A DNA stretch of 21,936 nt from Calditrichaceae bacterium (lineage in GTDB: Bacteria > Calditrichota > Calditrichia > Calditrichales > JBFXGD01): the NCBI GenBank assembly GCA_050178385.1, contig JBFXGD010000047.1, positions 1 through 21,936 of the forward strand, in the 5' to 3' direction. The notes under the pieces were generated by a model, which had not been told where the DNA came from, did no database searches, and was given only the letters and a program-made list of their open reading frames with translations. Both the position numbers and the translations under genes were made by a program. Below are positions 1,663 to 21,936 of this stretch, piece by piece (position 1 is the stretch's first letter; the number at the start of each line of letters is the position of its first letter).

Positions 1663-1666
1663 CAGA

Positions 1667-2317
1667 TTAATTTAACAAAGCATAGATAAATATGTTCACC
1701 GCCATCTCGAGCGCTTTCGCCCTTATTCCAGGAGGATCATTATGAATTTCCGGATCTTCACAGCCATCGCTGAGATCCGTATTAAAGCTATAGAAACAAA
1801 TCAGCCTGCCCTCATATATCAACCCATAACCGGCGGGGGGCCCACCTGAATGCTCATGGACTTTTGGCAAACCATGATCAAAATGATATTTTATGTGATA
1901 GATGGGATGAGAGAAAGGCAATTCTGTAAAATTCAGTTCCGGGAATACCTTTTTCATCTCTCTGCGAAACGATCTGTCCATCCCATAATCATCATCCGCA
2001 AAGAGGAATCCTCCCTCAGTAAGATATATTCTGAGCGCGGCCGCTTCCTGGTCAGTGAAAAATATATTACCATGACCTGCGATGTATGCGATTGGGTATT
2101 GCCTGAATTCAGGATCAGTTATTCGAAACGCAACTTCTCTGCTGCCTACAGAAAGGTTATAATCATTTTTAACCTTATCCAGAATATTCACCCAGGTAGT
2201 CTTGTTTCCATACCAGTCCCCACCCCCTCCATACTGAATACGCACAGGAGTAACTGTCTGACTTATTGAGACTGACCAGAAAAGCGATAAAAGATAGCAG
2301 ATGTTTTTCATATTCAT
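1667..2317 (-). CDS. DUF4159 domain-containing protein, probably exported
   Basis: Motifs YGGGGDWY, YPIAYIAGHG, YLTEGGFLFADDDYG, FRREMKKVFPE, LPFSHPIY, GLPKVHEH and TDLSDGCED match the FCB-type DUF4159 family. The ORF track starts at 2344, but that ATG lies inside a terminator hairpin. ATG 2317 or 2311 gives a signal-peptide-like N-terminus (MKNICYLLSLFWSVSISQ). Confidence 0.88.
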   Translation of the reverse strand: MNMKNICYLLSLFWSVSISQTVTPVRIQYGGGGDWYGNKTTWVNILDKVKNDYNLSVGSREVAFRITDPEFRQYPIAYIAGHGNIFFTDQEAAALRIYLTEGGFLFADDDYGMDRSFRREMKKVFPELNFTELPFSHPIYHIKYHFDHGLPKVHEHSGGPPAGYGLIYEGRLICFYSFNTDLSDGCEDPEIHNDPPGIRAKALEMAVNIFIYALLN

Positions 2318-2350
2318 AAAAAAAAACCCGAAATGAGCATTCATTCCGGG
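2318..2350 (-). terminator. Rho-independent terminator closing the giant-protein/partner-switching operon
   Basis: Minus strand reads CCCGGAATGA-ATGC-TCATTTCGGG-TTTTTTTTT: a 10-bp stem with one G-U pair, a 4-nt loop and a U9 tract, 30 nt after the DUF456 stop codon. Confidence 0.88.
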
Positions 2351-2351
2351 A

Positions 2352-2380
2352 AAATTAACCTTTTAAACATTTATTTACAA
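2352..2380 (-). promoter_or_regulatory. Possible sigma70-type promoter for DUF4159-DUF4175
   Basis: Minus strand has TTGTAA (2380-2375), a 17-nt spacer and TAATTT (2357-2352). The region is AT-rich, so a chance match is possible. Confidence 0.35.
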
Positions 2381-2881
2381 TCAAATTATTTTTGATACTA
2401 CCATAATAGCCATCGTAACTGTTCCAATGACTTTTATTGAGAGTCCCCCGAGTTTTCCTAAAAACGCCCCGAAACCCGAATATAAACTACCTCTTAAATT
2501 AGTCGTTCTAATAAATTCAAGTATAAAGGCACCCAAAAACACCCCGACAATTGATCCGATAATCGCTCCAAGCACCGGTGTAATGAAAGCTCCGCTTATA
2601 GCGCCAAGTATTCCTCCTACGATCCCGCCACTTATTCCCCATTTCGATGCGCCATATTTTTTAGCGGTCAGAGAAATTATCAGAAATTCCAGAAATTCGA
2701 TCAGAACCACAATGGCGAACAAAGTAAGAACAAAAGTGAATGAAAAGGATTCAAATCCCGTAAAAATACCATAAACAAGGCTGCTGCCGGCAAGAAGTGA
2801 ATTTCCCGGCAGACCATAAAAATTTGATAAAACTGAGATAAGGATGGTCATTACCAGACCAATTTCCATAATAGTTTCCAT
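2381..2881 (-). CDS. DUF456 (YqgC-like) family integral membrane protein
   Basis: 166-aa hydrophobic protein with GLPGN, AKKYGASKWGISGGIVGGILG and a glycine zipper LGAIIGSIVGVFLGAFILE, characteristic of DUF456. Confidence 0.88.
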   Translation of the reverse strand: METIMEIGLVMTILISVLSNFYGLPGNSLLAGSSLVYGIFTGFESFSFTFVLTLFAIVVLIEFLEFLIISLTAKKYGASKWGISGGIVGGILGAISGAFITPVLGAIIGSIVGVFLGAFILEFIRTTNLRGSLYSGFGAFLGKLGGLSIKVIGTVTMAIMVVSKII

Positions 2882-2898
2882 ACTTATTCACGTTCTCC

Positions 2899-3591
2899 TC
2901 AGGAAGTCGCAAAATCGTATCTGCGCGCCTTACTGTTCAACCGCATCTTCGCAAGTTCAGCGCGAACTTCAAACCAGCCCGTACGGGTATAACCGAATTT
3001 TGCTGTATTAAGGGCTTTTTTAATTTTATACGCCCCAAAACCAGGTTGTTCCTTAACGATGAGTTGTATTTTTCTTGAGAGACTCAAATCAGCCGGATTC
3101 ATTTCAGTTAACTCATCAGCGACATTTACCTTCTCAGCGCGTCTGTCATCGGTTCTTTGAGAAATTGGCGCTGGCGTCGGCTGAGGTGCTTTGGGGAGTG
3201 TGATTTCTTTGGCAACTGATTTTCCGGCGGCTTCAAGCATCTCAAATTTGTTTATAGCCTCATCCACGGTATCATATACGTCAAGGATGTGGTGGAATTC
3301 CAGAAGTTCAAATATTTCGTAAACATCAGGAACCATGCGGACTAATTTTAAATCACCGCCGTTTTCTCTGATCGATTTAATCTCACTGATAAATATCCCC
3401 CATCCCGCGCTGCTGATGTAATCGACATTACCAAGATCAACAATTATAAAGAACCGCCCTTGTCTCAATAGAGAATCCAGCGCTCGCTCCAGCTCAGATG
3501 ACGTTGTAGTGTCGATATACCCACCAACTTTTATAATGGAGATATGGTTCCGACTACCTGCAATTTCAGTAGAGACTTGAATTCCTTCCAT
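2899..3591 (-). CDS. STAS-domain anti-anti-sigma factor (RsbV/SpoIIAA-like) with a Pro-rich linker and C-terminal HTH-like domain
   Basis: aa 1-116 form a STAS domain: VGGYIDTTT, IIVDLGNVDYISSAGWG (predicted phosphoacceptor Ser61), GGDLKLV, VYEIFELL. Linker LPKAPQPTPAP. Tail aa ~169-228 is paralogous to a domain of the 1138-aa protein. Confidence 0.93.
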   Translation of the reverse strand: MEGIQVSTEIAGSRNHISIIKVGGYIDTTTSSELERALDSLLRQGRFFIIVDLGNVDYISSAGWGIFISEIKSIRENGGDLKLVRMVPDVYEIFELLEFHHILDVYDTVDEAINKFEMLEAAGKSVAKEITLPKAPQPTPAPISQRTDDRRAEKVNVADELTEMNPADLSLSRKIQLIVKEQPGFGAYKIKKALNTAKFGYTRTGWFEVRAELAKMRLNSKARRYDFATS

Positions 3592-3597
3592 CCAAAT

Positions 3598-3603
3598 CCT
3601 CCT
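3598..3603 (-). promoter_or_regulatory. Shine-Dalgarno site of the STAS gene
   Basis: AGGAGG lies 6 nt upstream of the ATG at 3591. Confidence 0.85.
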
Positions 3604-3652
3604 TCTACGGGAATTTATTTATTCAATTTTGATTCCGCATAATGTCGCGGAT

Positions 3653-6600
3653 TTAGTTCTTATCATTCTTTACTAACGATTCCAGCAATGAAGTATTGCT
3701 GACTATTTTTTTCTGAGCCAACTTTTTCCGGGCAATATCCATTTCACTTGAATTTTTAGTTTTAGCTGCAGACAATTTTGCAGTTATATGACGGCGAATG
3801 ATACCGATTTTATTATTTATTTCAGTTAATGATGATTGAACATTCAATATATAATCTTTTTCGACATATTTCAATAAGTCTTTTAATTTGGAATATGCAA
3901 ATTCCTTACCCAAATCCTTAAACTTAGACTCAAGCAGCGCGACTGATTCCTGCGTCTGCTCATAAATCCTTTGAATGTCGGGTAATTTTTTTAATATCGG
4001 ATTCTTCAACATAATTTTTAATATTAAATTTATTTTTTTCATCTCCTGCGCTCCGTCGGCGCTGGCATCAATTCCCCTGAGCAGTGATGAGATACCGGCA
4101 AGATCATCAGCGATTGAATCAAAAAAGTGTGCCAGTTCCACTGAATCAGTTTCAATAACCACCGTGGCTAACAATTCTTCTCTCGTTTTTTTCCTTGCCA
4201 GTTTTTCTTTTTGATCAGTTTTGTTTTTCACGCTATCAGAGCGATCTTTTCCGGGTTTCTCTGCTTCCTCTGTAGGCTTAAATGATATCCCGTCCTGATT
4301 AACTGTGATTGTTTCCCTATTTTCAATTCCCTCGACACTAACCTCTGCTGATTCGTTTTCTTTTTCAGTAGTGCTATTTTCTGCCGGAGGAGCTTTTTCT
4401 AACGGCTTCTCCTTATCAGGTTCTTTTGCGGGCTCCTCCGGTTTTGCAGGCTCAGTTGATTTTGCTGACTGATGCATAAATAATGGAGAAACCGATTCAT
4501 CCTTTTTTTCCGGTTTTTGAGTTTTATCGGTGTTAAATTCTCTCACTACAGCTTTTTTCGTATCGATCGGCAGACTTGTCAATTTTTGGGTAGCTTCTCC
4601 GGTACGCTTTGCAATCTCACTTTCTGATGACTGGAAATTCATAATTACTTTTCCGTCAAGCGTCAATAGCGGTGTACCAGGCTGTTTCAGTGCTCTCTTG
4701 TCTCCCTTCGATACAAACCTGACACGCTGTTCCTTCGTATTTAATTTTAGCTTAACCATTTCATTGTACAATCTTTGCGAATCAAGCTTTTCAAAACCAT
4801 AAAGTTCGGTATTCAAATCGTTAACAATTCGATTAGCGCCATACTCAGGATGTTTACGAATGATATCAAATATTTTTGCTTTAAGTTCTACGGATAAATG
4901 TTTTTTCTCAACATAATCCTGACCTTCGAGATATTCTCTCAGCGCGTCTAGCCCGCCTTCTTCAACAATACTCTTATATTTATAATAATGATATTGTGAC
5001 ACCCGCATTTGGTCACATGCATCCTTCACACGGGATCCACTTGATATTAATTCCAGTAATTCCTTATGAATTTTGTATACCACTTCGCCCGGCATTAATT
5101 TCTCCTTTACCGACACGAATGTGATATCATCATTCTGTGGGGCGCCACCGGTAAATGTTTTCAGATCTCCCTTGACACTTCTTACAAATTCCGCCACATC
5201 AAGATGACCGTTATTCCGGATAGCATCCAGAAATCTTTCTTCCCTGTACAATTCCCGTTTAGAATTCATTGCTTCTGTTATTCCATCGGTATAAAGAATC
5301 AGAATATCATCTTCTCTTAACCGTATAGAATCTGTCTCGATCTTCCTGTCGAACAGGGTAATATCGGGAAGCTGAATTCCCACAGGAAATCCTGATGGAT
5401 TAAGGTAGTATGTCTTTTTTGCGGATCCACGGTATAATATCATCGGATTATGCCCGGCGCTCGCGTAATGAATGATTCGATTCCTCGAGTCAAGAATGAT
5501 ATAGAACATGGTCACGAACATGCCGCGTTTCATATCATCGGTAACAAACCGGTTCACTTTGGCCAGAACATCCGCCGGATTTTTATTTCCCCGTGACTCA
5601 AGACGCAAAGCGGTACGAATCATGGTCATAATGAGCGATCCCGGCACGCCTTTTCCTGACACGTCAGCAACAATTATCCCGATTGTATCTTCATCGACTT
5701 CAACAAAATCGAATAAATCACCGCCCACTTCCTTTGCCGCTTCATAATACGATGAAATTTCAAATCCCTCGACTTCTGGGAAGTCGCTGGGGAGAAGCAT
5801 CTGCTGTATTTCCTGAGCAACCTGCAACTCCTTCTGCAATTTTTGCTGCTCCATCAGATTTACCTGGGCCTCGCGGAATTTAAAATTCATGTCATTGATG
5901 GCCTGGGCAATTTCACCAAGTTCATCCGATGTATCGATATCAATTTCATCCTGATCAACTTTATCATGTACAACCTGCCGGACCCATTCAGCAAGATTCT
6001 GGAATGGCGTAAGGATTCGGTGTATCAGAAAGAAGGAACCAACATATCCAATTGCTATTATTATTAATAAATAAAGGATCAAGCGCAGGCGTTTAGCTGA
6101 GGCAATATCTATCAATGACCGTTCATCAACCCAAATATGAACTTCTCCAAGTGACGTGCCTTCACCCAACAAAGATTGCCGAATAGTTGTCGACAAATCA
6201 TAGATATAACTGCTGTCACCCAGGCTATAGCTCATTACTTTCACATTAGCCAAACTATCCAGCTGAATAGCATTTTCCGGAATGGAATAATTTCCGGGGC
6301 CATCCATTTTCAGAGGAGTACTCCGCGCCTCGATTCTGCCATCCGGAAGGACAACAAATGCTTCCTGAATTGTTTTTTGATTGTTGTTTTTTACAGAACG
6401 CGCTTTCTCGAATAAACCCAGTGTATTTTCATTTAAAAGATCGTCCATAGCGTTATCCGCGAGAGAACGGCAATTTGAAGCGGCCTGCGCAAAAACTTCC
6501 TCGTTTACATCATTTCTCACATCGAAGATAAAAATAGAGAAAATGAAAACGGTAATGACAGTAAGTATTAGTGAAGCTACCAAAGAGTATTTGGCTCTTA

Positions 6601-7069
6601 GTGAAAAAGCCCGCCACTTGCTTATAAACTTTGATTCTTCAGGCGGTTCCTGTTTTTTTGTAAGCCTGAACTCATTGCCGCGTTCTGTGACGGCATATTG
6701 CAGATCATCCATGAGCTTTCGCATCATCATAATACCCAAACCGCCTTTTTTACCGATATCCACGTATTTAGCAAGATCCGGTGTATTGGCTTGTCTTGGA
6801 TCGTATGTACGTCCCTGATCAATGATCACGATCGTCAGACTTAATCTTCGGGCGATAGCTTTAACGGTGATTTCACCATTTTTGATATCTCTGTATCCAT
6901 GGCGAATTACATTTGTACATGCTTCATCAATAACGAGCTTGAAGGAATTTACCAGTTTTTCATCATACCGGTACTTTTTACCGATATGTTCAACAAAATC
7001 ACGTATCTGGACCAGATAGCTCATTTGAGCCGGAATCGTGATTTCTTCTTTTTTTACATTTTTAAACAT
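3653..7069 (-). CDS. Membrane-bound bifunctional partner-switching protein: RsbW-like HATPase kinase, TM, periplasmic domain, TM, HAMP, SpoIIE/PP2C phosphatase, HTH domains, linker, helical C-terminal domain
   Basis: aa 1-138: LVIDEACTNVIRHGY (N box), IIDQG (G1), GGLGIMMMRKLMD (G2). TM1 ~161-182 and TM2 ~330-349. HAMP: ILTPFQNLAE...DELGEIAQAINDM. PP2C: ELQVAQEIQQMLLP, EVGGDLFD, VADVSGKG, SAGHNP, LYTDGITEA, QNDDIT. About 480 further residues follow. Confidence 0.93.
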   Translation of the reverse strand: MFKNVKKEEITIPAQMSYLVQIRDFVEHIGKKYRYDEKLVNSFKLVIDEACTNVIRHGYRDIKNGEITVKAIARRLSLTIVIIDQGRTYDPRQANTPDLAKYVDIGKKGGLGIMMMRKLMDDLQYAVTERGNEFRLTKKQEPPEESKFISKWRAFSLRAKYSLVASLILTVITVFIFSIFIFDVRNDVNEEVFAQAASNCRSLADNAMDDLLNENTLGLFEKARSVKNNNQKTIQEAFVVLPDGRIEARSTPLKMDGPGNYSIPENAIQLDSLANVKVMSYSLGDSSYIYDLSTTIRQSLLGEGTSLGEVHIWVDERSLIDIASAKRLRLILYLLIIIAIGYVGSFFLIHRILTPFQNLAEWVRQVVHDKVDQDEIDIDTSDELGEIAQAINDMNFKFREAQVNLMEQQKLQKELQVAQEIQQMLLPSDFPEVEGFEISSYYEAAKEVGGDLFDFVEVDEDTIGIIVADVSGKGVPGSLIMTMIRTALRLESRGNKNPADVLAKVNRFVTDDMKRGMFVTMFYIILDSRNRIIHYASAGHNPMILYRGSAKKTYYLNPSGFPVGIQLPDITLFDRKIETDSIRLREDDILILYTDGITEAMNSKRELYREERFLDAIRNNGHLDVAEFVRSVKGDLKTFTGGAPQNDDITFVSVKEKLMPGEVVYKIHKELLELISSGSRVKDACDQMRVSQYHYYKYKSIVEEGGLDALREYLEGQDYVEKKHLSVELKAKIFDIIRKHPEYGANRIVNDLNTELYGFEKLDSQRLYNEMVKLKLNTKEQRVRFVSKGDKRALKQPGTPLLTLDGKVIMNFQSSESEIAKRTGEATQKLTSLPIDTKKAVVREFNTDKTQKPEKKDESVSPLFMHQSAKSTEPAKPEEPAKEPDKEKPLEKAPPAENSTTEKENESAEVSVEGIENRETITVNQDGISFKPTEEAEKPGKDRSDSVKNKTDQKEKLARKKTREELLATVVIETDSVELAHFFDSIADDLAGISSLLRGIDASADGAQEMKKINLILKIMLKNPILKKLPDIQRIYEQTQESVALLESKFKDLGKEFAYSKLKDLLKYVEKDYILNVQSSLTEINNKIGIIRRHITAKLSAAKTKNSSEMDIARKKLAQKKIVSNTSLLESLVKNDKN
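4715..5075 (-). other. IS481-family-transposase-like tandem HTH region within the sensor (aa ~666-785)
   Basis: LLELISSGSRVKDACDQMRVSQYHYYKYKSIVEEGGLDAL and IIRKHPEYGANRIVNDL...LKLNTKEQR resemble the two N-terminal HTH modules of IS481-type transposases as I recall them (LL.La....VskAC..mgvSR..fYry......GG.daL; P..G..Ri..eL...L.....R). Confidence 0.65.
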
Positions 7070-7091
7070 GTAATATCATATCCATGATTAT

Positions 7092-9026
7092 TTATTTGCC
7101 TGCGCTCTTGAGGCGTTCTTTCGCGCCTTTTATTGCAGCCAGGACCTTCTTATTATAAGGATGTTTGATTAAAATTTCTTCCCATATACCGATGGCATCC
7201 TGATATTTACCGATAAGGAATTTCTCCACGCCTTCGTGATAAAGTCGTTCCGCGTCCGGATCCATTTCATCTTCTTTTCCTATGGTTTCCACTTTCGACC
7301 GTTCAACATACTGCTTAACCAGCGGATTCTCAGGATCCATATCTAAAACGCCCTCAAAAAGCTGTAATGCTTTACTATACTCTCCTATATCGTACAAAAG
7401 CAAGCCTTGTTGAATATTTTCTTGTAATTTTATTCTTTGAGCCAATGCTTCGATCTCCGTCTGCAACTCCGCATTCTGCCCACCAAGCAATCTTGCGTCT
7501 GCCAAAAGCCGCAACGCTTCAGAATAATTCTGGTTTTTAAATTCTTCCCTGCTTTTACGAACAAGGCTGTTTATTTCTTCCGACAACCTTCTTTTTGTAG
7601 TTGAAATGGCATTCAGTAACGTCTCATTTTTCGGATCGCGCTCAAGTGATATGTTAAACTCAATTAAAGCTTCTGTAAACTGTTTTTTGTCAAGGAATAA
7701 CCGGCCTTTTTCAAAATGTTCATTTACATAACGCCTGTCATTCTCAGCCCTGTCTTTATCCAGAGCGTCTTGCACCGCCAGAGCCTGCTGTGCTTCAAAT
7801 CCTTTTTGCAGCATTGTATTTGATGAATCGAGCATCACCTTTGCTCTAAAATGGAACGGATCTTGTCCGATTACCTGCTGATATTCAACAATTGCATCCA
7901 GAAATTTTTCGGCGTTAAAAAATTCATCCGCTAATTTCAGGTGCGTAATAATCGATTGCTGCCTGTCAGACTCTCGTATTTCGGCGATGATGCGGTCTTC
8001 TTCTTCCTGTCGTTTTGCCTCTGCAATAGTAAACAGATCATCCCTTGTCAAACCGAAATTGAATGAAAGCGAAATGCGGTGTACCGCTGAAAAATAATCA
8101 CTGTATTCTGTCGAGCCAAAAGCATAGTCAATCTGGAAAAAACGATATTCGACACCGGCGCCGTATGTCAACCCATTGTTATCCATACCCAGCCTGAGCA
8201 TGCCCATATCTCTAAAGCTATACTCCGTCCCCATATTCAGTTTTAAATCTCTTTTTTCAGAATAATCAAAATCAAATGCCAGGTTTAATCCCCCTCCACC
8301 CGCAAATCTTAATTTTTTGTTGAGACCTAACCGGATACTCATCGGGTAATCGTCAACATCTATGCCTTCCTTTACTTGCGGAGGAAATAAGTTATGAATA
8401 TTTAAACCAAAAGACCAATCCTGAAGCCATCTGTTCGTAAACCAATCCGGACGATACATTATACCCAGATCGAGACCGACACCCATATCACTTAAACTTC
8501 CTTCATCATACAGATTACTCCACGCCCGTCTTACAACCCTGATCGTTGCCCCTGATGATAAATCCCATGGCAATTTTTTGGCGTATGAGAAATAAAACTC
8601 ATATTCTTCGCGGGAAAATTCACCTAAATATACATTATCTTTATCTGTCTGACTAATTTCACCGACTCCGATACGACCAATACCCAATCCAAAAGTCCCT
8701 AAACCCAGAGTCGGGAACGCATAGCCGAGGAAATCATAATTCGTTCCTTCAAAAAGAGACATGTGGAACAGTGTAACACTCTGTTGATAAATATATTCCA
8801 GTCCGGCAGGGTTCCAGAACACAGCAGTCGGATCATCCGCAATGGCTGTAAAGGCATGACCCATACCCATTGAGCGGGCCCCGTAACCAAAACTCAGGTT
8901 GCTCTCCGTTCCTCCCTGTCCATCCTGGGCGACCGCTCCGGCAGAAAATATTAAAATTGCCAAAACAGTGATGAATAAGCCTTCTGTTCTATTAAATAAT
9001 TTTTTTAATATTTGCATACCCGCCAT
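7092..9026 (-). CDS. PorV/PorQ-family (FadL-like) outer-membrane beta-barrel fused to a C-terminal coiled coil and TPR repeats
   Basis: Signal peptide ...FITVLAILIFSAGAVA|Q. Family signature LSFGYGARSMGMGHAFTAIADDPTAVFWNPAGL. Amphipathic strands end at IDYAF...HRISLSFNF (aa 324). TPR motifs follow: FLDAIVEYQQVIGQDP, FTEALIEFNISLERDP, YSKALQLFEGVLDMDP, YQDAIGIWEEILIKHP. Confidence 0.85.
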   Translation of the reverse strand: MAGMQILKKLFNRTEGLFITVLAILIFSAGAVAQDGQGGTESNLSFGYGARSMGMGHAFTAIADDPTAVFWNPAGLEYIYQQSVTLFHMSLFEGTNYDFLGYAFPTLGLGTFGLGIGRIGVGEISQTDKDNVYLGEFSREEYEFYFSYAKKLPWDLSSGATIRVVRRAWSNLYDEGSLSDMGVGLDLGIMYRPDWFTNRWLQDWSFGLNIHNLFPPQVKEGIDVDDYPMSIRLGLNKKLRFAGGGGLNLAFDFDYSEKRDLKLNMGTEYSFRDMGMLRLGMDNNGLTYGAGVEYRFFQIDYAFGSTEYSDYFSAVHRISLSFNFGLTRDDLFTIAEAKRQEEEDRIIAEIRESDRQQSIITHLKLADEFFNAEKFLDAIVEYQQVIGQDPFHFRAKVMLDSSNTMLQKGFEAQQALAVQDALDKDRAENDRRYVNEHFEKGRLFLDKKQFTEALIEFNISLERDPKNETLLNAISTTKRRLSEEINSLVRKSREEFKNQNYSEALRLLADARLLGGQNAELQTEIEALAQRIKLQENIQQGLLLYDIGEYSKALQLFEGVLDMDPENPLVKQYVERSKVETIGKEDEMDPDAERLYHEGVEKFLIGKYQDAIGIWEEILIKHPYNKKVLAAIKGAKERLKSAGK

Positions 9027-9031
9027 CTCAC

Positions 9032-9328
9032 TTATTTTATATAAGCAATTTTTGTGATAAATGTTTGCCGCGATCCGCCGCTTTTCGGCTTAATATCAAT
9101 CGCACAGAGATAAACCCCGTTTAAAACCACATAGCCACGGTCATTTTTACCATTCCATCGGACATCATCATAGTGCAGACCGGCAATCTGATTCGGCAGT
9201 ATTTTCGTCCATACAAGTTCACCAAGCAGAGTGAAAATCCTGATTTCCACATCCGAATCATGATCGAGCTGAAATACGATTGTGGTAAACTCTTCATTTC
9301 GACCAAACGGATTCGGATAATTTCTGAA
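9032..9328 (-). other. C-terminal secretion/sorting domain (T9SS CTD / FlgD-Ig-like)
   Basis: FRNYPNPF...FQLDHDSDVEIRIFTLLGELVW...VRWNGKNDRGYVVLNGVYLCAI...ITKIAYIK carries the YPNP, GxY and terminal KxxxxK hallmarks. Confidence 0.82.
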
Positions 9329-15300: not shown

Positions 15301-18300
15301 TGAGCGTATTCGGGAGCCCCGGCGCGATTGAAACCGGTACGCCATATGGTATAACAACAAGAGAATCGATTCTTAATAAGGCCTGTCCGGTATTTGTTAC
15401 ATCGATTGTAAGCAAGGTATCCACACCCTGACTGATATCGGTTCCGGAAGCGATGACAGAATTAATTTGTAACACCGCCGGATTTTGAACGACCAGACTG
15501 TCAGCGGCAGTAAGAGAATCATTAAACGCGGCGCCGTTTTCAGTACCGTTTAATACAAGAAGTCCTTCATATTTGGCATCACCCGGAATGGTCAGATTGG
15601 TGGCAGTGAAATTCAATGTTGTAGTCGATCCGCCTCCGGCGAGCGCCTGATTGGTAGTCAAATTAAATTTTTGACCTCCAAACTCAAAACTTGTAGATGT
15701 TTTATTTAAAAGGACATCATAAACGCCGTCATTTTTAACCTGTGCTGCAAACTGAACATTTTGACCGGCTGATACCGTTTTAGGAGTGTAATCAGCAAAC
15801 GTCAGAACGGCTGCGTTCGCAATGATAAACTGATCAGTTTGCGAAGATTCTGTATCGGAAATCAAATCCCCGGTACCGGAGTACCGGCCCATGACTGTTC
15901 CATCAACAATTATAGTATCCGGTGTAGCGCCGCTGGGAATATTGAGTGAGAACTCAAAAATTCCATCAGAATCACTTAGAAGAGAGTCCGGTCCCGATAA
16001 TTGAACTTCACTAAATCCATAATCAGGAGTAAATGTCAGATCCGCACTGAGATCACGAATCGTGTACATACTGGTGTTTCGGATTCTCATTTGAATCATA
16101 TTTATGGTGTCACTCTTCCGGACTATTTTAGACGCCGGATCGAGAACTGTAACCGATACAATTCTCAGAGGCTCAATGGAAAGCTCTACAGCATCCGTAG
16201 AAAGAGTGCCGTTCATTCCGCTATAATCTTCCCGGCCGACCAGATGAATTTCGGGCGTGTATTTTCCGCTAAGGAATCCACCATTAATAATCGCCGGTTT
16301 AAATTTCAATAAATTTTCCGGACTGCGGGGCGGCAATGCCAGCGGTGAATCCAGTTTAGCGGTAATACTGTAATCAGTATCGTTTATAATAAAGCTGCTC
16401 AGGGATGTATCCAGAGGTACAATGTCAATTCCGGGATTGGAAACTTTTACATAAAATGTGGTCGTATCTCCGGGCATTACAACCTTTGGCTCCAGAGAAT
16501 TGGATACATAACGGATGCCGTATATTTTAAAGGCCGCTGTATCAATCAATCCTGTGATATAGGCTTTCGCAAAAGAGGAATCAGCCTTTTTGGGACTGGT
16601 ATAAAGCGAATGCGCTAAGCCATTTTCATCGGATTTATCGGTCAGGTTTGAAATATATTGTGTCGGAATAAACTGAACAGTCTGATCTTTTACCATATTG
16701 CCGAATTGATCCTGAACCTGAGCGACTATCTGCTGATTACCGCCTGCGATGCTAGTCCGGTTATTTCCTGAATAGGCGACAATCGTATTTGCCACATCCG
16801 CATTCACAAGTGCATTAAATATGACAGGGGTCTTTCCGGGACTGTCCACTGTGAGAGTGTCATTTCCCGATACGGTTCTCAGTGTCCATATTACTGAATC
16901 CAGACCACTTGCATTCGTTACTAATCCTGAATGATCAACTCCTCCGTCTAGCGAAGGCGTCCAGTTAATCGTCACACCCTGGACAGGGTTGTTATAAGCG
17001 TCAACAGATCTCACTTTAAGATATTGAACAAGCGGCTGACCAACCGTACCGGTTTGATTATTTCCGGAGACTATGAGTATCTGAGCCGCTGTATCCGGCA
17101 CAGCAAATGCTGTAAACTTAATCGGACTGTTGTTCAACTGACTATTGAAAGCTGAAACCTGATACTCTCCTGTCATACTCCCCAACTGGAAGAATGTTTG
17201 CACATTACCATAAGCGTCTGATAAACCGGATTCCTGTGTAAAATTGAAATTATGCTCCGCGTTTACCGGGTGATCTGTCACGGAAAAGGTAACCGAAACC
17301 CCTGCAACCGGATTCCCGAAATTATCTTCGACCCTAACCACAAATGGTTGTGCAAGAGTATCCTGAACCGTACCCGTCAGAGAATCACCGGAAACATAAA
17401 CAAGTGTATTTGCAGATGAACTTAAAGCATTCGCGTAAAAGATAACCGGTGTGGCAATTCCTGCAACAGCGGCAGAAGCCGAGTCTAGTCCGACAGTTGT
17501 TTTCAGACGCCATTTACTTCTGGAAACGCCCTGGGTGTCAGTGGCATCAGACACAGGATTAAGAACGCCGTCACTATTTGTACTCCAGGTTACACTGGCA
17601 GCCGGCACCAGATTATTATAAGCGTCAACAACCCGTATTCCCAGTGAATCACTGATGAAATCACTGACCCTACCGCTAACCGTATCCGGGGTAATTTTTG
17701 TAATCGCAAACGCCGCGCCGGATCTGACTTTGATAATTCCCGAATAATCATTCAAGGAACCACGTGTAATTTTGATCTGCGAAGAATTTGCCACAGTGAA
17801 ATTAATGGTATTAGTTGCCGCGGAATCCGTTTGAGTAAACGCGCCGATCGAGTCACCGTCAACGGTCCATGACACATTTGCCGGCGAGATATAATTTCCT
17901 TTAACGTCATAACCAGCCGCGTACAAATCTAAGGACCCACCCGCTGCGGCAGTGTAAGCGCCTAACTCAGTACCTCCGGCGCCGGCAGTGGTCTGAATTC
18001 TGATGGATGCCAACTCTCCCGTCTGAACCGTAATCGTACCGGTCGCATCGTTGGTCCAACCGTTGGAATTTGTAACCTGTACTGCACCTGAGCCTGGTGA
18101 AGTCGGTGTGAGAGTAGTTACATACACATTTGTACTATTTCCAAGACCGGTCAATCCGCCTGTTACGTTCCAGTTAACAGGAGCATTTTGACTAAAATTA
18201 TTATCACTATCATATCCTGCCGAGTACAGGCTTAGAACCTGTCCAACCGCAAGAGTTGAGTCACCTATTTCAATTCCTCCATTGTTCGATTCAGTGCGAA

Positions 18301-21300
18301 TCTTAACATAGGAGACAGCCCCCGGGTTGACCGTGATCAATCCGGCATTGTCATAAACCGATGTGTTGGAAACCGCCGTAGCTCTTACACTTCCGGTACC
18401 ACTTAATGTTGCTTCAATATGCAGACTGTCTGTAGGATTTGCCGGTGAAATGGCAGAGATTGCGCCGCTGCGTGTCCAGTTTGATGAAACACGCCCTCTA
18501 TAGTTTCCATCCGCGTCGTAACCGACGGCATAGACATCTATAAAGTCATCGGCCGTAATGGTTGAATCACCTAATTCCGTTCCGTCATCAAGATCGTCTA
18601 TCTGCACCCGCAGCTCTGCCAGACTGCCGGGATTAACCGTAATGATTCCTGATGTATCCGCATCTACGGTCGGATATGTTGAATGTGTGGCCACAATCTG
18701 ACCGGTTACACCTGCAAGAACCGGGTTGAAGGCAAATTTCGAACCTGTGGAAGTCACCGGATCAAGACCGCCGAGACTTGTCCAGTTAACCACAACATCT
18801 GATCGATAGTTATCATATTGATCATAACCCGCTGAGAAGAAATTGACAAGATTATCTGCCGTAAAAGTGGAATCAGCAAATTCAACGCCGCCGTTATTGG
18901 CTTCGGTGCGCACCAGGACATAATTTAAGGCCGCCGGATTTACGGTAATAAGACCGCTTTCTCCCTTAACGTCTGTACTGGTTGATTTGACCGCCCGAAC
19001 AGTAAAGCTGCCTTTTTTTGTCTCACTTACGCTAAAGGCCAGTGTGCTGCTGGAACTAAAGACAAACGGCCCGCCTGCAAATACTGCTGTCGCGCTGCCC
19101 ACCGCACTCAATGTCACCTGATCACTGTTTACGACTTCATTACCGTTCTGATCGCGGGCAGTGAGTGTAAATGCTACGTTTCCGCCGGCAGTTATTGTAT
19201 TATCTCCCGAAGGTGTAAAGGTATAATAGCTGACTTTACCCGCCTTTAACGGCAGAATGATGGTATCAAGGATTCCACCGAATGAAACCTCAACACTGTC
19301 CCTCAAATAATACAGTGAATCGCTGGCTGTGTAGCGGGCTTCTGCTATTCCACCGGCATCGGTATCATCATTAATGTTGTCCAGTCCGTTGCTGAACAAT
19401 CCATTGCCGTTAAATCTTCTAAAAGTGACTGTCTGCAAAGCGGGCAAACGGTTATTATAAACATCTTCCAGACCAACCTGCAGGAGACGTTCGGTATCCG
19501 TTGTAATTGCATCCTGACTGGAAATGATGACAAAATGATCCGCCGCGGCAGCGTTTACCGTAATAAGTCCGCTCTCCCCCTTAATTTCGGTATTTATTGT
19601 TTTAGCCGCTCGTACTATAAAACTGCCTTTTGTATCATCGCTTACGCTGAAATTAAGCGTACTGCTGTTACTGAACTGGAATGGGCCGCCGGAAAATACT
19701 GCTGTTGCGCTGCCTGGTGCCGATAATGTTATCTGATCATTATTGATAACCGGATTTCCAAACTGATCGCGTGCCGTCAGTGTGAAACCAACGCTTCCGC
19801 CCGCAGTTATTGAATTGTTCCCTGAAGGTGTAAAGGTATAGTAGCTCACATTGCCGGCTTTTAATGGCAGCACGATCGTGTCCTTAACACCGCCAAAAAC
19901 GACTTCGACGCTGTCCCGCACATAGGTCAGGGAATCGCTGACAGTATATAACGCAGACGCGATCCCGTTATTATCCGTTGTTTTTGAGATCACATCTGAA
20001 CCATTGCCGAATAGGCCGTTTCCATGCAGCCGGTTAAAAGTGACTGATTGTCCGGATGAAACACGATTATTAAAGGCATCTTCCAATGCGACTTCGAGTA
20101 AGCGTGACGTTCCGACTTTAATAGAATCCTGACTGGAGATAATTATAAAATGATCTCCGGTTGCCGGATTCACCGTGGCGTTAAAATTAACGTCTGTTAA
20201 TCCGGGGCTTGACGCTGTCAGTAAATCGGCTCCCGCTGTCGATTGCAATGTCCATGTAACAGAATCCAGACCGCTTGCATTAGTGGTCAAACCGGTATGG
20301 TTTACTGAACCATCCGCAGCCGCTGCCCAGTTGATAATCGCTCCCTGGACAGGATTATCATAAGCATCAACGGCCCGTATCTTGTTTGATAACGCAAGAG
20401 CGCTCCCCGCAGTGCCAGTCTGATTATTTCCAGATACAATTACTAACCGATCCGCTACATCCGCCGTTGCGCTGACTGTAAAACTGACTGGACTGTTTAG
20501 CAACTGACTGTTATAGGCCGCGATCACATAATCGCCGACCTTTGTACCAAGAGTAAAGGTCGTTCTGACAAAACCACCCGCGTCTGAAGCGGCAGAAACC
20601 GGATTGATTATGAAATCATGGCCGCCGTCTGCTGGATGAGACGTTAAGGAAAATGTTACTGATACACCGCTGACGGGATTTCCCAAACTGTCGATAACCT
20701 GTACGGTTAACTGCTGGGATAATTCCTGACCGACAATATCGGTCTGTCCACCGCCGGCAAAATATTTTAAACTGTCTGCTGTTGATGTCAGAGTATTGGC
20801 GTAAAACTCAATCGGGGTTCCGATACCGGTAATTTGCGCCCTTGCTGTATCTGTCCCAACAGTTGTCATTAAATGCCATTTGCTTCTTGAGATTCCCTGA
20901 CTGTCAGTGACATCATTAACAGGATTCAACGAACCGTCCGAAGGAGTTGACCAGGTTACCACCGCTGACGGAACCAGGTTTCCATACGCATCTGTAACCA
21001 TCACCCCAAGAGAATCTGATATAAAATCATTTACTTTTCCACTTACAGTTTCCGGTGAGATTCTCGCGGCCGAAAAAGCATCGCCTGCCCTTACTTTTAT
21101 TACTCCGGAATAATCGTTCAATGCACCCCGGGATATTTTAATCTGAGACGTGTTAACCGTAGTAAAAGTAATATTATTACTTGTAGATGAATCCGTCTGA
21201 CTAAAAACTCCTATCGAATCTCCATCCACACTCCATGCAACTGTTTGATCGCCAAGGTAATTTTCGTAACTATCGTATCCGGCTGCAAAAAGATCTAAAT

Positions 21301-21936
21301 TGTCTCCCGCCTTTCCCGAATAATTTCCAAGCTCTGATCCACCGTTATTTGCCGCTGTTCTTATTTTTAAACTTTTTAACGCACCTGACTGGACAGTGAT
21401 GGTACCTGTGGCATCATTAGTCCATCCGTTAATATTAGTAACATTAACCTCGCCGGATCCTGCTGTAAACGGAGTTAATGTGGTAGAAGATGTACTGATA
21501 CTGTCTCCGAGACCATCCAATGTACCTGTCGCATGCCAGTCAACGGCTACATCAGCACTAAAATTATTTTCACTGTCATATCCCGCCGCATATAGATAAA
21601 GTGTTTGGCCAACGGTTAAATTAACCGCACCGATTTCGTTGCCGTTATTATTCGCGGCATCTCTTATTTTTACATAGCTCACCGCGCCTTCACTTACCGT
21701 GATCACACCCGTCGCGTCACTAAACGCTCCAAACGTCGCTTCGATTGTTCCGGAGGTGGGCGCCGTCGTTGGGTTAAAAGTAAAACTTGTCGTACCCGCG
21801 CTGCTGGCCGCGTCAAGACTACCCGTCGTTGTCCAGTCAGCTAGCTGATCCCCTATATAATTACCGTCTGCATCATAACCCGCCGCGTAATAGGTTAAAC
21901 TCCCGTCTGTCGTCACACTCTCTGTTGTCACGATGT
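9032..21936 (-). CDS. Giant Ig-like repeat cell-surface protein/adhesin with a T9SS/FlgD-Ig-type C-terminal domain (5' end outside window)
   Basis: The frame stays open past the track's GTG at 21931 to the window edge, and translation begins mid-repeat with no signal peptide. The protein is S/T/V/G-rich beta sequence with Big_1-like units (SGNNQTG...V.V.D.yGNPV.G..V.F/W) and CARDB-like units (VSQGQ...V.V.N.G). It ends in NYPNPF...IRIFTLLGELV...WNGKNDRG..VLNGVY...KIAYIK. Confidence 0.92.
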   Translation of the reverse strand, partial: IVTTESVTTDGSLTYYAAGYDADGNYIGDQLADWTTTGSLDAASSAGTTSFTFNPTTAPTSGTIEATFGAFSDATGVITVSEGAVSYVKIRDAANNNGNEIGAVNLTVGQTLYLYAAGYDSENNFSADVAVDWHATGTLDGLGDSISTSSTTLTPFTAGSGEVNVTNINGWTNDATGTITVQSGALKSLKIRTAANNGGSELGNYSGKAGDNLDLFAAGYDSYENYLGDQTVAWSVDGDSIGVFSQTDSSTSNNITFTTVNTSQIKISRGALNDYSGVIKVRAGDAFSAARISPETVSGKVNDFISDSLGVMVTDAYGNLVPSAVVTWSTPSDGSLNPVNDVTDSQGISRSKWHLMTTVGTDTARAQITGIGTPIEFYANTLTSTADSLKYFAGGGQTDIVGQELSQQLTVQVIDSLGNPVSGVSVTFSLTSHPADGGHDFIINPVSAASDAGGFVRTTFTLGTKVGDYVIAAYNSQLLNSPVSFTVSATADVADRLVIVSGNNQTGTAGSALALSNKIRAVDAYDNPVQGAIINWAAAADGSVNHTGLTTNASGLDSVTWTLQSTAGADLLTASSPGLTDVNFNATVNPATGDHFIIISSQDSIKVGTSRLLEVALEDAFNNRVSSGQSVTFNRLHGNGLFGNGSDVISKTTDNNGIASALYTVSDSLTYVRDSVEVVFGGVKDTIVLPLKAGNVSYYTFTPSGNNSITAGGSVGFTLTARDQFGNPVINNDQITLSAPGSATAVFSGGPFQFSNSSTLNFSVSDDTKGSFIVRAAKTINTEIKGESGLITVNAAAADHFVIISSQDAITTDTERLLQVGLEDVYNNRLPALQTVTFRRFNGNGLFSNGLDNINDDTDAGGIAEARYTASDSLYYLRDSVEVSFGGILDTIILPLKAGKVSYYTFTPSGDNTITAGGNVAFTLTARDQNGNEVVNSDQVTLSAVGSATAVFAGGPFVFSSSSTLAFSVSETKKGSFTVRAVKSTSTDVKGESGLITVNPAALNYVLVRTEANNGGVEFADSTFTADNLVNFFSAGYDQYDNYRSDVVVNWTSLGGLDPVTSTGSKFAFNPVLAGVTGQIVATHSTYPTVDADTSGIITVNPGSLAELRVQIDDLDDGTELGDSTITADDFIDVYAVGYDADGNYRGRVSSNWTRSGAISAISPANPTDSLHIEATLSGTGSVRATAVSNTSVYDNAGLITVNPGAVSYVKIRTESNNGGIEIGDSTLAVGQVLSLYSAGYDSDNNFSQNAPVNWNVTGGLTGLGNSTNVYVTTLTPTSPGSGAVQVTNSNGWTNDATGTITVQTGELASIRIQTTAGAGGTELGAYTAAAGGSLDLYAAGYDVKGNYISPANVSWTVDGDSIGAFTQTDSAATNTINFTVANSSQIKITRGSLNDYSGIIKVRSGAAFAITKITPDTVSGRVSDFISDSLGIRVVDAYNNLVPAASVTWSTNSDGVLNPVSDATDTQGVSRSKWRLKTTVGLDSASAAVAGIATPVIFYANALSSSANTLVYVSGDSLTGTVQDTLAQPFVVRVEDNFGNPVAGVSVTFSVTDHPVNAEHNFNFTQESGLSDAYGNVQTFFQLGSMTGEYQVSAFNSQLNNSPIKFTAFAVPDTAAQILIVSGNNQTGTVGQPLVQYLKVRSVDAYNNPVQGVTINWTPSLDGGVDHSGLVTNASGLDSVIWTLRTVSGNDTLTVDSPGKTPVIFNALVNADVANTIVAYSGNNRTSIAGGNQQIVAQVQDQFGNMVKDQTVQFIPTQYISNLTDKSDENGLAHSLYTSPKKADSSFAKAYITGLIDTAAFKIYGIRYVSNSLEPKVVMPGDTTTFYVKVSNPGIDIVPLDTSLSSFIINDTDYSITAKLDSPLALPPRSPENLLKFKPAIINGGFLSGKYTPEIHLVGREDYSGMNGTLSTDAVELSIEPLRIVSVTVLDPASKIVRKSDTINMIQMRIRNTSMYTIRDLSADLTFTPDYGFSEVQLSGPDSLLSDSDGIFEFSLNIPSGATPDTIIVDGTVMGRYSGTGDLISDTESSQTDQFIIANAAVLTFADYTPKTVSAGQNVQFAAQVKNDGVYDVLLNKTSTSFEFGGQKFNLTTNQALAGGGSTTTLNFTATNLTIPGDAKYEGLLVLNGTENGAAFNDSLTAADSLVVQNPAVLQINSVIASGTDISQGVDTLLTIDVTNTGQALLRIDSLVVIPYGVPVSIAPGLPNTLTGGETRPFDVRVTVPTGPDTGLVTIDARGKGIDINSGSEITTASAVATDSWNVYTPPVISITQIAHVNPADSLVSQGQSKIPVSVTIRNSGGTPVSINNLNLIAEIGLYTNEWPAFPIPLAGHSEITITDSVSVQTNSATGHDTLYASIKYQNNFSGKSSSLTSASFMAWEVTGKPLVEIISVSAVKDFVSQGQTSVNVSVRVKNVGTSPARVETLALQYQNGNENYVFNPVSPILPRTIDSGLSQVFTVPVDINFDAQTGPDTMYASINLTELLSQQNFDITDTTVTDTWQVQLRPQVVIDSVTVAPQLVSTNQSNLRAAIYMSNAAGPYRADAQVDSVRLKLMTSGAVERNDLFTISRNSSPSIPLILKPGSSTRFDFNLATLGGTLSDIYSVDGYTGTRDVNDGMLTIQDGAVIAGSLTVEQQALLAVNSVAVLPDTVSQGQTHARLSISVSNSGEADAVINSNQLSVSPPINLGPVLISHSTPFNLSGGLTDTLIYSLVIPSGYTGTVGVNNTISGKESNSGADLSASSGSPGQFFIETPAALSVFETIPNASPGDTTIQFRLKVVNRGEATVELDSNLTSIEIQGTSYLINLAGTSPQTIKAFPDTTELVFRSTLITAIQSQEYPLRLHVRGASNKAAYQSDHDAGIFAYGAGLISITSIGIVGDNRVIPGQTGIQVIMTVSNSGIPLQIDPAGTTLIMKSATDGSIRNVNNLNRTDTLTVLKTSSNNRLIFVFDLPDPFPLGQTNIFGQISLDNGNLVKESSTFEDMIVLSKANISYVLGSMNPDTLVRRQTNSFAFTFYNAGSADLALDPDSSYMEILSSPISRKYLAGKFTLGGLDSTEILFNSLTVPVTMDTVIYNVKWRLKGTLLNGSDYEKEETIFGVLKIIPEARLIFTQINILPETVRQGQNDIAIDYTLANLGKSSAAISKIDHIFNAGAADVSTQWLPSTFNLFPDTLMAGQSRTYSINYNLSQSATTGIVKPRPIVSYRDLRTSTFTDTSKTVIFMDSVLVIRPAIVGIDSLKIIKDVLAPNAPYVNQNESFNLRLRLVNNGADTIRTAYVSLSRDDNFLQQLVMTDIAPFNYKTMVYNSPGLAIDGSTVYKVKIDSAIDLTGSLVTIQQPVDNLETVLVQTASRLALNAAIISPVGAVDGIISVGTKFKVRADVSRVSGVSSYGSGKMTMSLPDTIHYKFDSDISEKTFTQSQAYAEWNLEALSVSTGGIFDSLRIQMNEIPIDLNTGRDVTTVKTIDTVLVRTDEAGIVTALISIASPDGARDSVISTGQEFVLHTEISFNQSVRDTGRVAQILLPSGFSVKTSSIKDLPATSTAVVDWEIVATGSPTPGTVNISVRIIGYDKNSGQLVETTSNLLPVQVVLKSSLVLGLKIVEPAGATDDTVSVGQTLKLEGLVTLQPGTAAISGTGKTSILLSPEFTLIDPDTQKTFTVGTPFYWWVRVDGASTKSAASMAELKSILNGINSKNSSPGQETGDIEQLDGRISGTDLQKVVKDALIVAAAAKESYQITVKVDSIPLDVNTQKPATINETQTKTIYTEEGATLSIVSTESPDTVSTGQTFIYRVTGQISSNLANPVAYLLMPEKFGGAVIARSLDINNQATWDIAVPADYTGTGKDTIAVFLTGIDRNSGEVTDPTSLVANPLTVQKRPKLSLKHTLISPVSSQAGLLSFGQEVIVELWAEYAENTSGIGYADVQGSGAISLDSALIIQNGFTLVEGETYKKTFTQLGQKLVWRIKAPLSERTVSINFNFTGLPSDKNSGLSAEIDVMTGLVSLPVRVRQKNITVLMLNDLIVDRSFLRGMTDRAILAFSISNQGYEDNLNVNAVEIGLYSTFGLPTADNLLNQLAIANMMKSLKVVNYDQYKTGLTKNTAVQRPKIFAEYQLDESSDNPVWMDFSLVDTLEAGAVDTIIVLAELQTEAENRSFRTVLKHVNAYDVDPSVPLAIKDAQGVDINESQSYTSEAFTVISSNPEEAFRNYPNPFGRNEEFTTIVFQLDHDSDVEIRIFTLLGELVWTKILPNQIAGLHYDDVRWNGKNDRGYVVLNGVYLCAIDIKPKSGGSRQTFITKIAYIK
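16800..18322 (-). repeat. Five-domain block, copy 2
   Basis: Runs GAVSYVKIR...GWTNDATGTITVQTG...WTVDGDSIG...LNDYSGIIKVRSG...DFISDSLG...QGVSRSKW...SGNNQTGT...GLDSVIWTL. Confidence 0.9.
18926..20155 (-). repeat. Tandem duplication of a two-domain unit (615 nt / 205 aa period)
   Basis: DHFIIISSQD...RDSVEV.FGG..DTIVLPLKAGNVSYYTFTPSG...FTLTARDQ...KGESGLITVN (19541-20155) is repeated as DHFVIISSQD...DTIILPLKAGKVSYYTFTPSG...FTLTARDQ...KGESGLITVN (18926-19540). Confidence 0.92.
20165..21688 (-). repeat. Five-domain block, copy 1 (~510 aa) of an internal duplication in the giant gene
   Basis: Runs GAVSYVKIR...GWTNDATGTITVQSG...WSVDGDSIG...LNDYSGVIKVRAG...DFISDSLG...QGISRSKW...SGNNQTGT...GLDSVTWTL, colinear with copy 2 about 3366 nt away. 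Confidence 0.9.

Follow-up and report, generated by a model that had tools for sequence, protein, structure and literature searches.

A conserved Calditrichota locus that may link a giant surface protein to a membrane-bound partner-switching enzyme

Introduction

How could a bacterium with two membranes learn what has become of a giant protein on its outer surface? The question is raised by a stretch of DNA from a Calditrichaceae bacterium (assembly GCA_050178385.1, contig JBFXGD010000047.1), referred to here as the window: a whole contig (C47) of 21,936 bp from a 3.9-Mb genome that is 94% complete. Its list of open reading frames (ORFs) places all seven genes, and with them every feature of the window given below, on the minus strand. 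Five of these genes form a compact unit, which encodes a giant protein of immunoglobulin (Ig)-like repeats, an outer-membrane barrel with a tetratricopeptide-repeat (TPR) tail, a membrane enzyme that joins a serine kinase to a phosphatase, a STAS-domain protein and a small DUF456 protein. Could they make up a signalling route across the cell envelope? A preliminary description of the window proposed such a route; our analysis confirms its observation of the five genes and partly supports its interpretation. We propose a trans-envelope module in which a barrel dedicated to the giant cargo carries a tail coupled to a membrane partner-switching enzyme, which in turn would set the phosphorylation of the STAS protein, and we hold the chances of this proposal to be about evenly balanced. 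Physical coupling of tail and enzyme, as modelled below, is likely. To our knowledge, signalling tied to a type IX secretion system (T9SS) is known almost solely from PorXY-SigP of one oral pathogen, and T9SS biology outside Bacteroidota has barely been described.

Results

The barrel tail is predicted to dock on the enzyme's periplasmic sensor

Which parts of the unit could meet in the periplasm? The barrel-TPR gene (7092..9026; 644 aa) encodes a PorV/PorQ-family outer-membrane barrel (residues ~82-324, 8055-8783), followed by a C-terminal helical tail with TPR-family matches (residues 326-644, 7095-8051). The next gene (3653..7069; 1138 aa) encodes the fused enzyme, whose periplasmic sensor domain (aa 183-329, 6083..6523) is bracketed by two hydrophobic segments. 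Tail 326-644 and sensor 183-329 were folded as a pair, each with its own alignment. The pair reached an ipSAE (interaction prediction score from aligned errors) of 0.74, with 0.74, 0.75 and 0.73 in the individual runs, against 0.00 for the best of three controls, so that the contact envisaged in the preliminary description is indeed predicted. As a rough yardstick, obtained with own alignments, the 0.74 mark is attained by 116 of 157 solved complexes and by 2 of 215 mismatched pairs. All contacts (100%) agree between runs, and the partner has a predicted local distance difference test score (pLDDT) of at least 84. We know of no solved TPR-Cache complex that the fold could have copied.

In the model, the tail's two final helical hairpins (587-604 and 627-635, within the distal tip 587-635, 7122..7268) touch sensor residues 214-224 and 252-258. 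The tail's contact residues are more conserved than the remainder of the tail (0.68 vs 0.58; permutation p ~0.05 with 40 distinct sequences). Among the sensor contacts, F220 and E221 belong to the sole motif that is locally conserved in this domain; it is invariant in 11 orthologues. The passing model supports binding of tail and sensor, as a predicted contact.

Gene order and spacing outlast sequence divergence

Is this arrangement a peculiarity of one genome? We surveyed 86 genomes of the phylum, many of them kin and therefore not independent, so that all counts overstate the number of independent observations. An orthologue of the enzyme is present in 82 of the 86 (two more matches are PP2C-only paralogues) and one of the barrel-TPR protein in 79. 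The two genes are adjacent on one contig in 73 of the 79 genomes that have both, and lie on separate contigs in the other six. Three genomes carry the enzyme without a barrel-TPR gene, one of them as a fragment, one with an enzyme gene that starts at a contig end and one being a complete genome; four genomes lack both genes. Giant, barrel-TPR, enzyme, STAS, DUF4159 and DUF4175 genes are kept in all ten near loci, and giant, barrel, enzyme and STAS in seven of eight loci from distant genomes of other orders, the exception being genome G085. In metagenomes, some contigs of which stem from the same organisms as the genome loci, barrel-TPR directly precedes the enzyme wherever upstream DNA is available (32/32 loci), and STAS comes next wherever downstream DNA is (23/23).

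The four genes are also kept at two loci of a KSB1-like lineage, whose enzyme has its named relatives mostly in candidate division KSB1. Identity to the window has there fallen to 46-47% for the enzyme, 29% for barrel-TPR, 52-54% for STAS and 26-27% for the giant's C-terminus. Gene order and spacing outlast deep sequence divergence, and the conserved synteny that the preliminary description called for extends to this lineage.

Might the genes nevertheless be together by descent only, and the fold score be a false pass? The genomes with the cluster do come from one phylum and one neighbouring lineage, with the non-independence just described, and the mark let through not only the 2 of 215 mismatched pairs but also 7 of 44 neighbouring gene pairs picked blindly. 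Against this, the order has persisted at 26-54% protein identity and with short gaps (5 and 22 nt in the window), the unit has been duplicated together in four genomes, and the two central genes are jointly missing in four. We regard the absence of any functional link as very improbable.

One terminator closes the five-gene unit

The unit comprises the giant gene (9032..21934 as listed, 5'-open, 4300 aa within the contig), barrel-TPR, the enzyme, the STAS gene (2899..3591; 230 aa) and the DUF456 gene (2381..2881; 166 aa). All are co-oriented, and the intergenic gaps of 5, 22, 61 and 17 nt that the preliminary description gave were reproduced from the ORF list. Directly 3' of the DUF456 gene lies a hairpin with a T-run that resembles an intrinsic terminator (2318..2350; hairpin 2350..2327, ten pairs followed by T9). 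A hairpin and T-run follow DUF456 in 9/9 relatives that have this gene; their stems differ in sequence and keep their pairing. This is a real, conserved terminator, the one that the preliminary description had placed at the end of the unit. The three upstream gaps (5, 22 and 61 nt) contain no terminator-like site that would divide the adhesin and PorV-family genes from the signalling genes. In the 61-nt gap between enzyme and STAS genes there is a 5-bp hairpin without a T-run, then a strong ribosome-binding site, AAGGAGGA. Promoter-like matches in 1..9500 number 18, with 24.6 expected by chance, and are uninformative either way.

A PorV-family barrel beside its putative cargo

What kind of barrel is it? 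Against the PorV/PorQ family model NF033709 the protein scores 151.4 bits (cut-off 90) over residues 44-324, and 153 bits in the genome-wide search with this model; TPR families match it as well. The structure model (pLDDT 76) has strands over 82-324, a 44-residue helix and helical repeats up to residue 642. Among solved structures the barrel is best matched by 8gl6_F (E 7e-11) and 6h3i_F (E 7e-10). Both chains are PorV within T9SS SprA translocon complexes, and in one complex a substrate C-terminal domain (CTD) is bound. FadL and TodX come next, and the tail resembles TPR proteins. The PorV and PorQ equivalogs are not reached (NF033710 63.7 vs 250 bits; NF033711 87.2 vs 220 bits), and a PorV-family gene elsewhere in the genome scores higher (C12:8799-9809, 336 bits). 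Among the PorV-family matches of the genome, the window's is the sole long frame (665 aa), most others having 275-493 aa. The preliminary description had cited SprB/SprF as an example; for this barrel SprF is the wrong family, and we rejected that identity at 22.3 bits on the PorP/SprF model TIGR03519, whose cut-off is 90.55.

The giant protein, whose 3' part fills 9032..21936 and runs off the contig end, exceeds 4300 aa. It has Big_1 Ig-like repeats, with weak matches to CARDB and NEW3. Contig C101 of the same genome carries the 5' end of its gene, signal peptide included. Open frames of 4931 and 5879 aa occur among orthologues, one of which opens with a hydrophobic, signal-like N-terminus. 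Does it carry a T9SS sorting signal? Its last ~120 residues (a putative C-terminal T9SS-type sorting domain at residues ~4180-4300, 9035..9397) align (E 5e-11) with the domain at the C-terminus of the PorU model, and the alignment stops three residues short of the stop codon. Of 42 such CTD-like matches in the genome, 41 lie at ORF C-termini, with a common tail of the type NYPNPF...K-x-x-x-x-K. Pfam gives Por_Secre_tail 14.6, CHU_C 20.7 and FlgD_ig 22.1 bits, all below the 27-bit cut-offs, and we therefore call the giant's tail CTD-like.

Is the secretion system itself present in the host? Searches of the genome returned PorU with 818 bits, SprA with a summed 886 bits and, above the cut-off, 11 members of the PorV family, and to this extent the core T9SS genes expected by the preliminary description are there; GldL and GldM, also on its list, went undetected. 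Several of the 11 PorV-family genes adjoin CTD-bearing genes (contigs C49, C72, C128, C149 and C210), and one comes after a second PorU-like gene of 1695 aa. This suggests that the genome holds many cargo-dedicated PorV paralogues, of which the window's barrel, next to its giant neighbour, may be one.

A kinase and a phosphatase in one membrane polypeptide

The enzyme matches HATPase_c_2 with 93, SpoIIE with 170 and HAMP with 31 bits. From its N-terminus it comprises an RsbW-like Ser kinase (aa 12-138), hydrophobic segment 1 (TM1, the first transmembrane segment, aa 157-186), the sensor, hydrophobic segment 2 (TM2, aa 325-354), HAMP (aa 347-394), a PP2C/SpoIIE phosphatase (aa 460-655), a region with weak transposase-type helix-turn-helix (HTH) matches (aa 671-790), an invariant motif, KQPGTPLLTLDGKVI (aa 795-809, 4643-4687), and a variable low-complexity linker with a C-terminal helical domain up to residue 1138. 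The N, G1 and G2 boxes of the kinase and the PP2C Asp residues are invariant in the 11 enzyme orthologues aligned, whereas the periplasmic domain is the least conserved part. Family-model searches found no receiver domain in the enzyme, the order being kinase-TM-sensor-TM-HAMP-PP2C-HTH-like. A feature search names sCache_3_2 for the sensor, as a lead only. The match to the SiaA model is weak, with E 5e-16 and 58 bits where the cut-off is 700. In the HTH-like region, HTH_29 (17.8 bits), HTH_23 (17.4) and HTH_32 (12.9) each stay under their cut-offs, and the IS481 transposase model gives E 3.6e-7, with 30 bits against a cut-off of 224.

The predicted locations form the chain of surface, outer membrane, inner membrane and cytoplasm that the preliminary description had drawn. 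The barrel-TPR protein has a single, N-terminal hydrophobic segment (residues 14-36), the enzyme has two and the STAS protein none.

Would a signal run inwards along this chain, or outwards? The predicted contact of tail and sensor also fits a LapD-like, inside-out scheme, in which a cytoplasmic state (the phosphorylation cycle of STAS, or some other input to the C-terminal domains), passed on by HAMP, makes the periplasmic domain grip or free the tail, which would give control over how the giant protein is secreted, anchored or released. The HAMP domain at the membrane agrees with this, and cytoplasmic additions to the enzyme (HTH-like region, motif 795-809, C-terminal helical domain) could receive inputs. 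In the window's own order, moreover, enzymes of cyclic di-GMP (c-di-GMP) turnover, GAF-GGDEF and GAF-HD-GYP, lie directly upstream of the giant gene. Yet these neighbours are absent in four distant genomes examined, family-model searches found no c-di-GMP-binding domain in the enzyme, and a HAMP domain between a sensor and PP2C is the usual outside-in layout. We consider the inside-out scheme quite unlikely.

Two further features of the enzyme were observed. The motif KQPGTPLLTLDGKVI, directly 3' of the HTH-like region, matches no family. The C-terminus varies between lineages: it carries TPR repeats (1157-1256) in the KSB1-like lineage (locus L087, 9001-12816) and a linker with a helical domain in Calditrichales, and the extension is absent in other Calditrichota orders. 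An atlas lead has this enzyme architecture commonest in Zixibacteria within one cluster.

The STAS protein and its tail

The STAS domain (aa 1-125) scores 72 bits, and its fold matches SpoIIAA and RsbV. Residues S60 and S61 are invariant in 11 orthologues. With the GHKL Ser kinase and the PP2C phosphatase of the enzyme, a STAS protein with a conserved Ser makes up the kinase, phosphatase and substrate of a partner switch of the RsbU/RsbV/RsbW type. The domain is followed by a disordered linker and a confidently modelled four-helix tail (166-230), which is homologous to enzyme residues 724-790 (BLASTP E 3e-10, and by alignment). What is this shared domain? Pfam has no match for the STAS tail, and the HTH reaches no Pfam or NCBIfam threshold in either protein. 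A profile of the shared domain drew a single match among solved structures (E 1.5), so that no solved relative was found, and a fold search with the STAS model returned STAS-domain matches only, leaving the tail unplaced. An atlas search suggests, as a structural lead, HTH_32 of IS481 transposases (template-modelling score 0.78). Of the label STAS-HTH in the preliminary description, the first half stands and the second falls below every Pfam threshold.

We also observed that the STAS domain (residues 1-133, 3217-3591) is near-identical across the phylum, with a mean distance of 0.13. Other proteins of the same genomes are only 50-60% identical, which makes the constraint on STAS unusual.

Second loci, a loss case and evolutionary rates

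Does the sensor belong to what is inherited together? Several observations weigh against the relay that we propose. Four genomes hold a second locus (L052, G042:C13; L053, G045:C24; L054, G021:C110; L055, G047:C16). It combines a giant-like gene, often divided between several frames, with a paralogue of barrel-TPR at full length and with a soluble, stand-alone RsbW-like kinase (172-179 aa; boxes intact). This kinase has neither a transmembrane segment nor a sensor, and PP2C and STAS are absent from the locus. It follows that the contact of tail and sensor cannot by itself account for the genetic linkage; what travels together is cargo, barrel and cytoplasmic kinase, not the sensor, and this suggests that the kinase has a reason of its own, for example co-expression, for its tie to the cargo module. 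A further case is G085, a complete genome in a single contig (locus L043, C1:1801700-1821400). Its enzyme lacks the kinase domain but retains the sensor-HAMP-PP2C part, together with STAS and DUF456; no giant gene adjoins the enzyme, and a barrel-TPR gene was not found genome-wide at E 1e-20. The sensor motif has not decayed there despite the loss of barrel-TPR, which is in itself uninformative.

Rates and contacts point the same way. The sensor has a mean distance of 1.60, about twice that of the tail (0.78) and close to that of the giant body (1.78), and its contact residues taken as a whole are not more conserved than its remainder (0.40 vs 0.41, p 0.53). Residual co-variation of tail and sensor is unremarkable (partial r 0.21) and neither supports nor refutes the contact. 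The corresponding values are 0.51 for barrel and C-terminal body of the giant, 0.34 for barrel and CTD and 0.35 for sensor and CTD; all derive from distance matrices of 18 taxa, with non-independent pairs, and are exploratory. Two labels are weak points as well, since the giant tail's CTD and the HTH both stand on sub-threshold Pfam scores. Weak evidence against the proposal, finally, is that the GldL/GldM models (TIGR03513, TIGR03517, PF12081) are silent in the genome, in a search in which no control genome scored above any cut-off either.

Could the genes thus be linked by regulation, without a relay from tail to sensor? The dosage of a co-expressed kinase would then report expression of the operon, the Cache-like sensor would read a small ligand or the cargo CTD, STAS would feed back on transcription, and the TPR tail would dock on T9SS parts, peptidoglycan or cargo. 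The second loci, with giant, barrel-TPR and soluble kinase only, suit this explanation, as do the giant-like rate of the sensor, its higher residual with the CTD than with the tail (again exploratory) and the sCache-type lead. So does the strong Shine-Dalgarno sequence AAGGAGGA 5' of the STAS gene, kept in 11/11 loci. A precedent exists in Porphyromonas gingivalis, where the CTD of the cargo protein PorA is reported to bind the periplasmic portion of PorY, a sensor kinase (PMC12152298). On the other side stand the fold score of 0.74 against a control of 0.00, at a mark so seldom reached by mismatched pairs and so often by solved complexes, and the location of the contact at the far end of the tail, with residues that are conserved, in paralogous tails too. 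Because the paralogous tails keep these positions, both kinds of tail could dock on the single sensor. Regulation without a relay seems to us fairly improbable, while deserving to be taken seriously.

Flanking genes

The DUF456 protein (PF04306, 96.6 bits) is a small membrane protein with hydrophobic stretches in about four regions; it is present in 9/10 near and 5/8 distant loci. Past the terminator follow, co-oriented, the DUF4159 gene (1667..2344 as listed; 225 aa) and the DUF4175 gene (1..1662, 3'-open; 554 aa within the contig), both assigned by Pfam and in place in 10/10 near and 7/8 distant loci. The ATG listed as the start of DUF4159 (2344) falls within the stem of the terminator. Just past the T-run, two in-frame ATGs (2317 and 2311) agree better with the starts in relatives, and 2317 is the likely start. 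A patatin-POTRA-Omp85 gene follows DUF4175 in the same orientation (L023, 15384-21515). A second envelope-related unit (DUF4159, DUF4175, patatin-POTRA-Omp85) is in this way welded to the first, and most relatives keep it.

Upstream, contig C101 (1-12429; compare L039-L041), which bears the 5' end of the giant gene, encodes a small secreted protein, GAF-HD-GYP, a 382-aa TPR protein, GAF-GGDEF, a sigma-54 activator and three SurA-like peptidyl-prolyl isomerases. The 382-aa TPR protein is cytoplasmic, and distant families, too, keep it upstream of the giant gene. A CRP/FNR-like site, TGTGC-N6-TCA(C/T), precedes the small gene in 4/4 regions (C101 ~2560-2580 minus, L039, L040 and L041), two of the four being from near-identical relatives. 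Sigma-54-type promoter elements upstream of the giant operon gave no shared site. A sigma-70-family gene was not seen in the window or the flanks examined, and no genome-wide search was made for one.

Discussion

How might the module work? Sec and, by way of the C-terminal sorting domain, the type IX system would in turn export the giant Ig-repeat protein, and its own PorV-family barrel would handle it at the outer membrane. The 320-residue tail of the barrel would hang in the periplasm, its tip (587-635) docking on the membrane-distal face of the sensor (214-224, 252-258). Acting through HAMP, this contact could set how active the PP2C phosphatase is relative to its opponent, the RsbW-like kinase at the N-terminus of the polypeptide, and their balance would set phosphorylation of Ser60 in the neighbouring STAS protein. 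STAS may then act through its transposase-type helical tail, either by docking on the homologous enzyme domain or by binding DNA, and might thereby adjust expression or handling of the surface protein. Attachment, load or secretion status, named in the preliminary description, may be what the tail reports, and the signal may run inwards. As to the output, the STAS tail might bind DNA or dock on its homologous part of the enzyme, the kinase might hold a sigma factor or, as is reported for HsbA/HsbD, nearby c-di-GMP enzymes might be involved (PMC6482189).

A more far-reaching version would have a continuous relay from a 5000-residue surface protein through barrel and TPR arm to a Cache-HAMP sensor and on to the fused kinase and phosphatase. 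Secretion state or mechanical load would be written as phosphorylation of a DNA-binding STAS regulator. Such T9SS-based surface sensing would differ from PorXY, Wsp and Lap and would be an ancestral trait of Calditrichota and KSB1. This is possible, though we rather doubt it.

Does any described system resemble the locus? At SprB/SprF of Flavobacterium johnsoniae, as is proposed for the window, the gene of a giant T9SS cargo lies beside that of a dedicated outer-membrane barrel. SprF, however, is of the PorP family, on whose model the window's barrel fails (22.3 vs 90.55 bits). SprB carries a type B CTD, and literature searches turned up no signalling genes at that locus. PorV of F. johnsoniae and P. 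gingivalis, with the PorQ family, is closer: the window's barrel passes the family cut-off, folds most like PorV chains and adjoins a gene for putative cargo with a CTD-like tail. It differs in lying below the equivalog cut-offs, in its 320-residue periplasmic TPR tail, which is seen in none of the genome's other PorV-family matches, and in its fixed place beside a signalling enzyme.

SiaABCD of Pseudomonas aeruginosa, which controls aggregation, likewise sets a membrane HAMP-PP2C phosphatase against a kinase acting on a small partner protein. Its kinase is a separate protein, whereas that of the window is fused to the phosphatase; its substrate has a non-STAS fold, and its output is a diguanylate cyclase. 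LapA/LapD/LapG is alike in logic only, the fate of a giant adhesin being tied to an inner-membrane HAMP protein with a periplasmic domain. Lap uses type I secretion for export, a periplasmic protease and c-di-GMP binding. We rejected membership of this type, the window containing no type I secretion, protease or c-di-GMP-binding part, and keep the analogy.

Fusion of PP2C with an RsbW-type kinase/anti-sigma factor in one polypeptide, acting on a STAS protein, is described for HsbR-HsbA of P. aeruginosa and CrsR-CrsA of Shewanella (PMC6482189), and the window's enzyme shares this design. HsbR and CrsR are soluble receiver-PP2C-kinase proteins with phosphorelay input, whereas the window's enzyme sits in the membrane, lacks a receiver and has a predicted periplasmic input. 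In PorA/PorXY-SigP an inner-membrane sensor is reported to detect, within the periplasm, a component of the T9SS cargo pathway and to modulate gene expression (PMC12152298); the window's enzyme would do likewise. There the ligand is the cargo CTD, the sensor a histidine kinase and the output an extracytoplasmic function (ECF) sigma factor; here the predicted ligand is the barrel tail, and a Ser kinase and PP2C would act on STAS. All parts of the locus come from known families, and their wiring matches no described system. In literature searches outside subscription journals, papers combining T9SS with either partner switching or Caldithrix did not turn up. The genome paper of Caldithrix abyssi reports that gliding machinery of the Bacteroidetes type was not found (PMC5317091).

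What does the locus offer? It presents a PorV-family protein with a built-in periplasmic arm, a new partner-switch architecture in which kinase and phosphatase are fused under a predicted periplasmic input, and a specific predicted contact between that arm and the enzyme. The module is nearly universal in a phylum that has a cultured member, C. abyssi, and is therefore accessible to experiment. Studying it would bear on how a bacterial cell, with two membranes in between, senses what state its giant surface proteins are in: if our proposal is true, the cell envelope of these organisms may report on the giant protein to the cytoplasm through the contact of arm and sensor.

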